Notes under the pieces: generated by a model
What the model was told of the DNA's origin: nothing
The model's input: the letters and a program-made list of their open reading frames with translations, nothing else
Databases searched by the model: none
Assembly: GCA_041393815.1 (NCBI GenBank)
Contig: JAWKJK010000006.1
Location: forward strand, 19,002-83,001
Length of the DNA: 64,000 nt
Source of the DNA: Candidatus Nanopelagicales bacterium
GTDB lineage: Bacteria > Actinomycetota > Actinomycetes > S36-B12 > JAWKJK01
Reading direction: 5' to 3'
Part shown: positions 59,701-61,856 of the stretch, piece by piece
How positions within the stretch are numbered: position 1 is the stretch's first letter
Layout: every line of letters begins with the position of its first letter
Position numbers and translations under genes: made by a program

Positions 59701-61856
59701 ATGTTGGACTCGGAGAGCTCAGCGGTGCGCACCTCGAGTGTCTCGTTGACGGTGGTGAGCTCCTCGTTGGTGGCCTGCAGCTCCTCGTTGGTCGTCTCGA
59801 GCTCCTCGTTCGTGGCCTGGAGCTCCTCGCCCGACGCCTGCAGCTCCTCGTTCATCGACTGCAGTTCCTCGTTGGAGGACTCCAGCTCCTCGACCACCGC
59901 CTGCAGGTGCTCGCGGCTGCCCGCCAGCTCCAGCTCCAGTTCCTTGACCCGCAGCAGCAGGTCGGTGACGTCGTCCGCGCCGGTCGACTCGGCGACGACC
60001 GGTGGGACTCGGTCGTGGACGTCCCGGGTCGACGGGGCCGCGACGAAGGACAGTGCCACGTACGGGTCGTCCTCGTCGGCCTCGGCCAGCGCCTGGGCGC
60101 GCAGCTGCCAGGTCTCCGCGCGCCCCTCCGCGTCCCGCAGGACGACGGTGTGGCCGACGGGGGTGGCATCGGACCGGCGCACGCGTGCCAGCAGGCTGCC
60201 GACCTCGGTCCGGAGCTCCGGGACGACCATCCCGGCGAGCGTCATGTCGCCGTCCGCGTCCGGCATGGCGAGGAACCGGCGCACGTCGCCCACGGTGTGC
60301 ACCGGGATCCCGTCCGGGTCCACCAGCACCGTCGCAGGGCCGTACTGGCCCAGCAGGGTGTCGCGCAGCCGGTCGCGAACGCGGTCGCGGGACGAGCGAC
60401 CGCCCGCCGGACGGCGGACCGGGTGCGTGAGGATCGGGGTGCGGGGCAGGCCGGTGTAGGTGGCGATCGTGCTCCCCGGCTTGGTCTGGAAGACCCGGCT
60501 CGCGGCGTCCACCGTGGCGAACAGCGGGGTGTCGGCGGGGATGGACTCCGACCGGCCCAGGAAGAGCAGCCCCTGGGGCGCCAGGGCCGCGTGCAGGTTC
60601 GCCAGCACCTGGTCCTGGACGTCGGGGATCAGGTAGATGAGCAGGTTGCGGCAGCTGACCAGGTCCATCCGCACCAGCGGAGGGTCGCGGGTCACGTCCT
60701 GGCGGGCGATGACGAGCATCTCCCGCAGGCGCTTGTCCACCTGGGCCAGGTCGCCGGTGACGGTGAAGTAGCGGCGGCGCCACTCCTCGGGCACCTCGGC
60801 CAGGGCCGAGACCGGGTAGGTGCCCCGGCGCGCGGTCTCCATGGCCGCGTCCGAGATGTCGGTGGCGAAGACCTTGACCGGCGTGTCGACCTCCTGCTCG
60901 CGCGCGGTCTCCGCCAGGAGCATCGCGACGGAGTACGCCTCCTCGCCGGTGGCGCAGCCAGCGACCCAGGCCCGCAGCGGCTGTCCGGACGACTTCGCGG
61001 CGACCACGGGACGCAGCGCGTCGGCGAGGGCGTCGAAGGACTTGCGGTCGCGGAGGAACCCGGTGACCGTGATGAGCATGGAGTCGCGCAGCGTCTCCAG
61101 CTCCGCGGGGGTCTCGCGCACGTACGTCACGTACTCCGCGGTCGTGCCCAGCCCGAGCTTGGCGATCCGCTTGGCGAGCTGGCGCCCCAGCGTGCCGTCC
61201 TTGTAGCTGGCGATGTCCCAGGCGGTGACCCGCCGGGTCTCTGCGGCCAGCTCCGCCAGGTCGAGGTCCCCGGAGAACCGGCCCACCGTCTCCGGCAGCC
61301 GCTGGCCGGACAGCACGGCGCCGATCGCCGCTCCGATGCCCACCGGGTCCGCGGCGACGTCGACGACGCCCGCGTCGATGCAGGCGCCCGGCATGTCGCG
61401 GTAGCGCGCCGAGGACGGGTCCTGGGCGAAGGTCCGACCTCCCGCGGCCCGGACCGCGCGCATCCCGGCCACCCCGTCGGAGCCGGTCCCCGACAGCACC
61501 ACCCCGATCGCGGCCGGGCCGGCCTCCGCCGCGATGGACGTCAGCAGGGCGTCGATGCTCGGCTGGGGGGAGATCCTCGGCTCGGCCTGGGCCGAGGTGA
61601 GGACCGCGCCGCGCAGGCGTACGTCCCGGTTGGGTGGCGCCAGGAAGACCTCACCGGCGACGAGCGGCGTGGAGTCACCGATCTCCCGGACCGGCAGGGA
61701 GGTCTCCCGGCCGAGGACCTGCAGGAGCAGGCTGGGGTGCTGCGGCGACATGTGCTGGGCCACGACGTACGCGACATCGCCGGCGGGAAGGGCGGGCAGC
61801 AGCTCCCGGAGGGCCTCGACCCCCCCAGCCGAGGATCCGATGCCCACGACCCACAT
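56763..61856 (-). CDS. CheB methylesterase - CheR methyltransferase - coiled coil - multi-PAS - GGDEF - EAL signalling protein (1697 aa)
   Basis: CheB '[14 protein letters not shown]'. CheR '[18 protein letters not shown]'. Heptad array NEELQAT x7. Several PAS blocks. GGDEF domain with '[11 protein letters not shown]'. EAL domain with 'VELEALARW', '[10 protein letters not shown]' and 'ELKLDRSFV'. Confidence 0.9.
   Translation of the reverse strand: [1697 protein letters not shown]

Follow-up and report, generated by a model that had tools for sequence, protein, structure and literature searches.

A candidate methyl-accepting helix in a CheB/CheR fusion protein with GGDEF and EAL domains

Locus and domain layout

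The window, a stretch of 64,000 nucleotides from Candidatus Nanopelagicales bacterium, has a GC content of 73% and an actinobacterial gene content. On its minus strand, positions 56763-61856 form one open reading frame of 1,697 amino acids, as seen from the ORF list and translation. Pfam matches, supplemented by AlphaFold2 for the first PAS-like domain and the following helix, give the domain order CheB-CheR-PAS-helix-PAS_10-PAS-PAS-GGDEF-EAL. A sequence-only reading had already placed CheB, CheR, PAS, GGDEF and EAL domains in one chain, and Pfam confirms this. All features below lie on the minus strand.

The N-terminal part consists of a CheB methylesterase domain (aa 4-177, 61326..61847, Pfam E=1.2e-49) and a CheR methyltransferase (60504..61262) composed of CheR_N (aa 199-248) and the SAM-binding domain (aa 264-451), both recognized by Pfam. 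A linker predicted to be disordered (aa 466-488, 60393..60461, AlphaFold2 pLDDT <50) leads to an alpha/beta domain (aa 490-606, 60039..60389) that is PAS-like by its AlphaFold2 secondary structure (pLDDT 81-95) and has no match in Pfam. It is followed by a second predicted disordered linker (aa 612-629, 59970..60023, pLDDT <50 over aa 612-631) and by a continuous helix of 98 residues (aa 630-727, 59676..59969, pLDDT 77-93). The helix contains eight heptads (aa 655-710, 59727..59894), seven of the form xEEL and one NETL, delineated by translation, repeat analysis, family logo and conservation ranking. The sequence-only reading had set these heptads at 59740-59900; they are indeed present, on the minus strand, and their true span is slightly wider.

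Directly C-terminal of the helix is a PAS_10 domain (aa 731-824, 59385..59666; Pfam match PF13596 at aa 721-824, E=1.2e-13), found by both Pfam and AlphaFold2. Pfam further identifies PAS_3 (aa 863-947) and PAS (aa 1096-1212), together at 58221..59270. The GGDEF domain (aa 1222-1430, 57567..58193) is matched by Pfam in two stretches; its signature is GGDEY, RESD lies five residues before it, and the domain carries an internal insertion. In the EAL domain (aa 1444-1674, 56835..57527, E=3.6e-66) the EAL, DDFG and EGVE motifs are present. No PDB entry spans the PAS-helix-PAS portion.

The CheB triad S9/H35/D127 aligns with S164/H190/D286 of Salmonella CheB (1A2O). Across 78 sequences of the family H35 and D127 do not vary, and S9 is kept in at least 90%. 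According to Pfam, the CheB domain begins at the protein N-terminus, leaving no receiver domain. The CheR motifs FLRD, ATGEE, ATDIS and CRNLLIY align with their counterparts in 1AF7, 1BC5 and 5FTW, and in the same 78 sequences R269, G304-E305-E306, D333 and R403-N404 are invariant and Y408 is at least 90% conserved. We take these residues to include the equivalents of R98, D154 and Y235 of Salmonella CheR. Among the basic residues of CheR_N, R225 is invariant and K219, R229 and R230 each occur in at least 90% of the 78 sequences; they fall in or near a helix predicted by AlphaFold2 at aa 220-233. Judging by their residues, both the CheB and the CheR domain look catalytically competent.

The heptads and the methylation consensus

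AlphaFold2, run on the single chain, predicts aa 630-727 as one unbroken helix with no turn, flanked by predicted disordered tethers. Its heptad register is continuous, with leucine or valine at all 14 of the d positions. The helix has 24 glutamates and a net charge of -21. Within the heptad stretch, which accounts for a charge of about -17 per chain, asparagine occupies seven consecutive a positions, and the second glutamate of each EE pair takes position c.

The methylation consensus of chemoreceptors (MCPs) is EExxA[S/T] (PMC1079850). The strict form EExxA[ST] fits three of the seven EE heptads (EELQAS once, EELQAT twice), with a spacing of seven residues, and the relaxed form [EQ][EQ]xx[ASTG][ASTG] fits five. 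Thus the claim that EELQAT and EELQAS fit the consensus exactly holds, and the claim that all seven heptads match it was overstated. Neither form has a match in the other 1,599 residues of the protein. When the residues of the helix are shuffled, three or more strict matches arise in 5e-5 of trials and five or more relaxed ones in 7.5e-4.

A longer consensus, [ASTG][ASTG]xx[EQ][EQ]xx[ASTG][ASTG], was reportedly derived by Alexander and Zhulin in 2007. This ten-residue pattern has no match in the window protein, and the median is likewise zero in 78 family members. Five of its six specified positions do fit; the exception is the first small position, which in the heptads is Q or E. In E. coli, methylation helix 1 of Tsr and Tar contains LEETAAS and MEQLTAT, which share with NEELQAT the register core-E-E/Q-core-x-A-S/T.

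The methylation helices of MCPs are among the closest known systems. In helix 1 of Tsr and Tar (sites 297/304/311), as here, glutamate pairs stand one heptad apart, are followed by x-x-A-S/T and occupy b and c between core positions of an acidic helix; CheR and CheB are the cognate enzymes, and neutralization of charge is expected to stabilize packing. They differ in several ways. The MCP helices form an antiparallel hairpin within a four-helix bundle, whereas the fusion protein has a predicted single helix of 98 residues between PAS domains and lacks a kinase-control tip as well as a partner CheA or CheW. Position a is asparagine here but hydrophobic in MCPs; there are seven to eight tandem candidate sites instead of 3+1, all of them encoded as glutamate; and the heptads do not fit the extended consensus in its upstream half. 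Pfam finds no MCPsignal (PF00015) match in the window protein at E up to 0.01. Homology of the coil with Tsr was also considered and rejected, the coil profile giving an hhalign probability of 0.3% against the Tsr cytoplasmic domain.

In a rival reading the helix is a structural signalling coiled coil only, serving dimerization and PAS-PAS coupling. The trans substrates of the fused CheR and CheB would then be conventional MCPs or other proteins with genes elsewhere, and the likeness to the consensus a by-product of an acidic coil rich in small residues. We regard this reading as unlikely. It gains from the lack of a match to the extended consensus. The known CheR/CheB substrates are antiparallel four-helix bundles, whereas a coil of at most two strands is expected here, which counts against a methyl-accepting role of the helix. 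In running between two PAS domains as a single stretch of unbroken heptads, the helix also resembles many signalling helices: coiled coils connecting sensors to outputs are similarly long, of the parallel-dimer type, with unbroken heptads joining two signalling domains. The present helix departs from them in the extreme conservation of its surface, its extreme negative charge, the asparagine at nearly all a positions and its strict association with CheR and CheB.

Conservation and genomic context of the family

The sequence-only reading took the heptad motif for something peculiar to this protein. Instead, it is the hallmark of a very large family named "CheB/CheR fusion protein", which we take to correspond to KEGG K13924; clustering at 50% identity divides it into about 15,700 clusters, from many bacterial phyla and at least one archaeal MAG. 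Homologues are labelled 'Two-component system, chemotaxis family, CheB/CheR fusion protein' in the JGI, UniRef and NCBI names. The window protein belongs to the family by its Pfam order, a CheB without receiver domain followed by CheR_N and CheR. The alignment of the N-terminal 830 amino acids with 120 homologues covers 99-100% of that length, E values being as low as 1e-282, and the family shares the succession of CheB without receiver domain, CheR, PAS-like domain, NEEL coil and PAS_10. Heptads of the NEEL type are present in nearly all of these 120. The sequences most closely related to the window protein are those of Mycobacterium and Mycobacteriales MAGs. Most listed family members either terminate in HisKA/HATPase or lack an output domain; GGDEF-EAL output is less common and occurs also in three other members (P0034, P0037, P0041) and in actinobacterial MAG orthologues.

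The family consensus of the heptad is N-E-E-L-[Q/E]-[AST]-[AST], in six to eight repeats. Among 116 homologues with only 36-56% overall identity, four of the seven NEEL heptads keep N, E, E and L at 99% or more and the remaining three at about 70-100%, with S, T or A also occurring at position a; f and g are limited to A, S or T in most heptads. Conservation of the motif in orthologues, on which the sequence-only reading had made its proposal depend, is therefore evident. The candidate sites are encoded as glutamate and not as glutamine in the family logo. The majority fraction is 0.84 in the heptads, compared with 0.62 in CheB, 0.58 in CheR and 0.36-0.42 in the PAS domains, and the best-conserved window of 21 amino acids in the N-terminal module is aa 677-697. 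The heptads are conserved above both enzyme active sites, and this includes the solvent-facing positions b, c, f and g, which are as invariant as the core. This is difficult to reconcile with a coil of purely structural role.

At the DNA level the heptads form a tandem repeat with the 21-bp period that the sequence-only reading had noticed (Tandem Repeats Finder, 7.4 copies, 74% matches). The pattern SAGCTCCTCGTT, with at most one mismatch, occurs five times at the heptads with spacings of 21, 21, 42 and 21 bp; in the whole window there are six matches against 0.43 expected, and none of 100 shuffles reaches six. Such visible periodicity could mean that the repeat is due to chance or to a recent low-complexity duplication without specific function. 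To this we assign a negligible probability, as the DNA copies are only 74% alike and yet the protein motif is preserved. Moreover, the number and order of the distinct heptads (ETS as opposed to Q[AS][ST] types) are kept from Actinomycetota to Cyanobacteria, Acidobacteriota and one archaeal MAG. The conservation data thus refute functionless duplication.

A protein search with the coil alone yielded only fragments of at most 175 aa and was thus uninformative on coils without CheR. It was replaced by a search of representative proteins and a genome scan with the coil pattern EELQ[SA][TS]NEE, which hit upwards of 600 stretches of genomic sequence; the 80 loci that were kept add up to about 1.3 Mb. 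These contain 83 coil ORFs, of which 65 have CheB and CheR within the same ORF, in the complete architecture. In the others, CheB and CheR mostly lie in an adjacent frameshifted ORF, or the locus is cut by a contig end. CheR is found upstream of the coil in essentially all of the 80 loci and CheB in most, with one truly CheR-only locus (L008). An apparent natural split in locus L081 into two called genes, CheB-CheR-PAS (P0081) and coil-PAS-GGDEF (P0241), was rejected: five C's in a row stand at the junction and the homologous linker goes on in the downstream frame. It is a frameshift and gives no evidence that enzymes and substrate exist as separate proteins. A feedback loop closed by a phosphorylation-regulated CheB is unsupported as well: the stand-alone CheB ORFs beside the fusion genes in L004, L011 and L039 have no receiver domain.

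That the coil almost never occurs apart from CheR speaks against a structural role with the enzymes acting elsewhere. The one coil lacking both CheB and CheR, and the sole case outside the fusion family among the 80 loci, belongs to a HAMP/GAF histidine kinase of Magnetospirillum molischianum (L001, 18798-20576) and favours the structural reading. It has heptads of the same polar-E-E-L kind before the output domain (AEELRAS, QEELQIQ, SEELASI, NEELKIK), but there are only four of them and f and g are mostly not small.

The fusion loci sit outside che operons. With E. coli sequences as queries, no CheW was found within 10 kb in any of the 80 loci, and an MCP-like ORF in only two. In the window itself, tblastn with such queries detected no MCP, CheW or CheY-like sequence, and the 30 window ORFs picked for a Pfam scan contain no such domain, which upholds the sequence-only statement that the window has no MCP gene. 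The B12-binding and prepilin-like neighbours of the window gene are absent beside its homologues in the 80 loci. For enzymes acting in trans on MCPs such a setting is unexpected, and so is their place N-terminal to the sensor and transmitter, which is the position of an input and not of an output. The Mycobacterium and Mycobacteriales affinity of the closest relatives also counts against it; mycobacteria are not known to have chemotaxis genes. On the other hand, many host taxa are motile bacteria with MCPs, and Magnetospirillum, Nostoc and Paraburkholderia are examples of hosts that have MCPs.

A possible self-methylating module

Taken together, these data make us lean slightly towards the view that the helix of aa 630-727 is an internal methyl-accepting segment, serving as substrate to the CheR and CheB domains of its own chain or of the dimer partner. 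One argument is that invariance of the exposed positions b, c, f and g is not needed in a purely structural coiled coil. The suggestion of writer, eraser and candidate substrate in one chain is thus strengthened by conservation, co-occurrence with CheR, intact catalytic residues, lack of a receiver domain and loci of non-che type; its substrate part is weakened by the fit of only three of the seven heptads to the strict consensus, the lack of a match to the extended one, the single helix, the lack of MCPsignal homology and the kinase coil without CheR.

The mechanism could be as follows. The helix would pair with its twin in a homodimer, forming a two-stranded coiled coil, and the asparagines at seven a positions together with the charge of the heptad stretch would render this pairing marginal. 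CheR would methylate the second glutamate of the EE pairs, as at the chemoreceptor sites E-E*-x-x-A-S/T. Each methyl group would remove one charge and should tighten the coil, and CheB would take the methyl groups off again. How accessible the helix is to each enzyme would depend on the signalling state of the PAS domains on either side; the methylation level, in turn, would act back on the conformation handed on to the downstream PAS-GGDEF-EAL part. A single polypeptide would in this way adapt or keep a memory, the tuned output being c-di-GMP turnover here and the activity of a histidine kinase in most relatives.

The predicted disordered linkers at aa 466-488 and 612-631 would tether the enzymes near the helix. 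This is similar to the situation in E. coli, where the NWETF pentapeptide on a linker of roughly 35 aa raises the local concentration of CheR, the KD of CheR being about 2 uM for NWETF and hundreds of uM for the methylation sites (PMC7390727). In both cases a flexible tether would keep the enzyme by low-affinity sites; in Tar and Tsr the binding of CheR and CheB is reversible and scarce enzymes serve many receptors, whereas the predicted linkers are part of a covalent 1:1:1 fusion.

Alternatively, the acidic heptads might serve for docking or regulation and not as a substrate that is turned over. They could be either a pseudo-substrate that parks or auto-inhibits CheR/CheB, or a zipper sensitive to charge, cations or pH, in which asparagine layers and EE pairs make stability set the output. 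The high net charge and the seven asparagines would indeed confer unusual sensitivity to charge screening, and the conserved basic residues of the CheR N-terminal helical domain could bind the helix without catalysis. However, both enzymes keep their full catalytic machinery family-wide, which is unexpected if catalysis is irrelevant, and small residues at f and g suit a catalytic site more than ion binding. We consider this explanation improbable.

We found no paper on the fusion family, its function or the NEEL motif, and no report of methylation of the helix or of any family member; a 'NEELQ' match in a bacterial paper proved to be a yeast SNARE sequence. In textbooks, sensory adaptation works through the reversible methylation of glutamates by CheR and CheB, which is known only from chemoreceptors within CheA/CheW arrays.

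For the family as a whole, we give an even chance to a one-polypeptide adaptation device, in which the fused CheR and CheB reversibly methylate up to seven or eight glutamates on a two-stranded Asn-zipper coil between PAS domains, so that kinases and c-di-GMP enzymes gain a methylation memory independent of CheA, CheW and MCPs. If this is true, the coil would be the first non-MCP class of CheR and CheB substrates, and methylation-based adaptation would be at work, as a self-contained 1:1:1 system, in c-di-GMP enzymes and ordinary sensor kinases too, also in organisms and loci without chemotaxis genes. It would account for the thousands of genomes with "chemotaxis" enzymes outside che operons and correct the widespread annotation of the fusion proteins as chemotaxis proteins. 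Finally, it would provide a compact and portable adaptation module to study or engineer.

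The CheB/CheR fusion protein

The longest ORF over the heptads is the giant gene (56763-61856, minus strand), encoding 1,697 aa. Its Pfam domains bear out the sequence-only reading that a writer, an eraser and a PAS-GGDEF-EAL output lie in one chain: CheB_methylest (aa 4-177), CheR_N (aa 199-248), CheR (aa 264-451), PAS_10 (aa 721-824), PAS_3 (aa 863-947), PAS (aa 1096-1212), GGDEF (aa 1222-1430; window 57567-58193, minus strand) and EAL (aa 1444-1674). A further PAS-like fold (aa 490-606), missed by Pfam, is predicted by AlphaFold2. The GGDEF hit is split by an insertion of about 45 aa; its signature motif is GGDEY, and an I-site-like RESD lies five residues before it. 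The EAL motifs are intact.

CheB starts at the N-terminus and therefore lacks a receiver domain. S9, H35 and D127 align with the catalytic triad S164, H190, D286 of Salmonella CheB (1A2O), and the FLRD, ATGEE, ATDIS and CRNLLIY motifs of CheR structures are kept. In the 78-sequence family alignment H35, D127, R269, G304-E306, D333, R403-N404 and, in the N-terminal domain of CheR, the basic R225 are invariant; Y408, S9, K219, R229 and R230 are each kept in at least 90% of the sequences. With these residues and motifs kept and conserved, both enzymes look active. This conservation is left unexplained if the helix is a docking element, a pseudo-substrate or an electrostatic sensor, roles that we consider unlikely.

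The heptad helix and the methylation consensus

The heptads occupy aa 655-710 (window 59727-59894, minus strand). The 21-bp repeat reported from the sequence alone was recovered by Tandem Repeats Finder (period 21 bp, 7.4 copies, 74% matches), and the plus-strand motif SAGCTCCTCGTT occurs here five times, spaced by multiples of 21 bp. Over the whole window 0.43 occurrences would be expected, and shuffled sequences never reached the observed count. Between the copies, synonymous and variable positions have diverged but N-E-E-L is preserved, so the periodicity reflects protein-level selection rather than recent duplication.

AlphaFold2, run on aa 1-836 with the 78-sequence alignment as input (mean pLDDT 88, pTM 0.52), predicts one unbroken helix at aa 630-727 (pLDDT 77-93), directly followed by PAS_10 (aa 731-822), and two linkers with pLDDT below 50 (aa 466-488 and 612-631). 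All 14 d positions of the helix are L or V, seven a positions are Asn, and there are 24 Glu, with a net charge of -21. In a dimer such a helix would pair as a two-stranded coil. MCPs, in contrast, have hairpin helices.

Three heptads match the strict methylation consensus and five the relaxed pattern [EQ][EQ]xx[ASTG][ASTG], counts reached in 5e-5 and 7.5e-4, respectively, of shuffles of the helix's own residues. No match of either kind was found in the other 1,599 residues. Thus the initial proposal that seven heptads fit the consensus holds for these, whereas the remaining heptads fall short. The register is that of LEETAAS and MEQLTAT in methylation helix 1 of Tsr/Tar: core, E, E/Q, core, x, A, S/T. 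The heptads do not fit the extended 10-residue consensus, having Q or E where it first calls for a small residue. Homology of the coil profile to the Tsr cytoplasmic domain was not detectable by profile comparison, and a Pfam scan found no PF00015 match in the giant protein. The likeness to MCP sites is one of recognition motif, not of shared ancestry. One possibility, favoured by the non-MCP geometry and the misfit to the extended consensus, is that the helix is a structural coil and the fused enzymes act in trans; on balance we regard this as unlikely.

Family conservation and genomic context

The architecture is known and annotated. With the N-terminal 830 aa as query, 3,852 proteins were retrieved at E<=1e-10; the best 120 (99-100% query coverage, 36-56% identity) are labelled "two-component system CheB/CheR fusion protein" by their sources, have HisKA/HATPase, GGDEF-EAL or no outputs, and nearly all contain 5-8 xEEL heptads. 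Among Actinomycetota MAGs there are orthologues that share the GGDEF-EAL output. The coil with PAS_10 as query yielded 15,666 clusters at E<=1e-3 from 1.84 billion representative proteins.

The heptad motif, whose absence from orthologues would have told against the sequence-only reading, is conserved. The logo of 116 sequences reads N-E-E-L-[Q/E]-[AST]-[AST]. Four of the seven NEEL heptads have N, E, E and L each conserved to at least 99%; in the other three, 70-80% of sequences have Asn at a (the rest S, T or A) and 81-91% have Leu at d. Individual heptads keep their own type, e.g. ETS versus Q[AS][ST]. The majority fraction is highest in the module for the heptads (0.84), compared with CheB (0.62), CheR (0.58) and the PAS domains (0.36-0.42), and the best-conserved 21-aa stretch of 836 positions is aa 677-697, which outranks the SAM motif of CheR and the active site of CheB. 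The relaxed motif occurs at a median of 5 per coil versus 0.095 per 100 aa elsewhere. The motif is a hallmark of the family, and a chance repeat is excluded. Full-text literature searches found no description of it or of cis-methylation, and neither a dedicated NCBIfam model nor a solved structure of the PAS-helix-PAS part was found.

A genome scan seeded by the coil patterns alone (EELQ[SA][TS]NEE, [TSA][NK]EELQ[SA][TS]N) hit over 600 genomic stretches, in Alpha-, Beta-, Gamma- and Deltaproteobacteria, Acidobacteriota, Verrucomicrobiota, Cyanobacteria, Chloroflexota, Planctomycetota, Spirochaetota, Myxococcota, one Mycobacteriales MAG and one Methanosarcinales MAG; 80 loci were kept. The coil-PAS_10 module accompanies CheR/CheB in a Methanosarcinales MAG (L020, archaeal as binned), a Mycobacteriales MAG (L003) and a Cyanobium MAG (L012); lineages such as the last two are generally regarded as non-chemotactic.

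CheB and CheR share the ORF with the coil in 65 of the 83 coil-bearing ORFs. In most others the enzymes are in the adjacent upstream ORF, in another frame, a pattern of error-prone long-read MAGs, or the contig end cuts the locus; L008 genuinely has CheR alone. A HAMP/GAF histidine kinase of Magnetospirillum molischianum (L001, 18798-20576, plus strand), unrelated and without CheR or CheB, accounts for one coil: there AEELRAS-QEELQIQ-SEELASI-NEELKIK, with f and g mostly not small, precedes HisKA. EEL-type coils thus exist outside the fusion family, and this single case favours a structural coil. However, the regular co-occurrence with CheR/CheB argues against enzymes acting in trans, as does the absence of che surroundings: of the 80 loci, none has a CheW-like ORF and two have an MCP-like ORF at a distance of up to 10 kb from the fusion gene.

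Receiver-less stand-alone CheB_methylest ORFs directly adjoin fusion genes in L004 (6815-7879), L011 (11104-12252) and L039 (10505-12190), and L011 has two CheB/CheR fusion genes in tandem. A fusion orthologue that appears split into two genes (L081, 6001-11015; P0081, P0241) was rejected as a natural split: the two are separated by a frameshift within five consecutive C's, probably an assembly error, as the same contig also has a split MoaA.

The window resembles a high-GC actinobacterial chromosome (73% GC; MMPL, GH1, GH18 and S13 peptidase genes). A search of its sequence found no MCP, CheW or CheY-like sequence, in agreement with the initial impression that no MCP gene is visible. Chemoreceptors are present in some actinobacterial families (table, PMC7390727). 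Starting 18 nt after the stop of the giant gene, and probably co-transcribed with it, is a gene (55665-56744, minus strand) for a 359-aa protein with B12-binding_2 and B12-binding domains, which may be a cobalamin-based (light?) sensor partner; in the 80 loci this neighbour is not conserved beside homologues. A type IV pilin-like gene (54450-55604, minus strand) lies a short way downstream of the c-di-GMP enzyme gene; its product has a prepilin-type methylation motif at the N-terminus (FSLVELLVV...) and a large C-terminal domain. Upstream of the giant gene, two long ORFs of 183 and 414 aa (61913-63901, minus strand), low-complexity and R/D/H/E-rich, have no Pfam match and probably represent spurious ORFs, antisense in a high-GC genome.

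The helix as a candidate substrate in cis

Read most economically, the helix would be the substrate of the fused CheR and CheB. The motif, its conservation and the co-occurrence speak for the candidate substrate helix first proposed from sequence, whereas the extended consensus and the MCP-type hairpin are wanting. In a structural coiled coil the constraint is mainly at a and d. In this helix the exposed Glu-Glu at b and c and the small residues at f and g, one turn past the putative acceptor Glu, vary no more than the core does, which points to recognition by a protein surface and argues against a purely structural coil. That the coil's regular companions, CheR and CheB, have a known site of exactly the heptad pattern supports the substrate reading.

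The CheB catalytic fragment is constitutively active, and by analogy the receiver-less CheB should be too; any feedback would therefore have to come from conformation-dependent access to the helix. In E. coli, NWETF on a linker offsets weak site affinity (PMC7390727); its parallel here would be covalent tethering via the predicted disordered linkers. Given Asn at a and a charge of about -17 per chain across the heptads, charge neutralisation would strongly control coil stability, and methylation would supply it, as it does in the methylation helices of chemoreceptors. The analysis itself shows the competence of the enzymes, the motif with its conservation, the co-occurrence and the geometry of a single helix; we infer the pairing in a dimer, the residue that accepts the methyl group, an effect on output and adaptation behaviour. 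If the helix is indeed such a substrate, this would be methylation-based adaptation in a new variant, outside chemoreceptor arrays.
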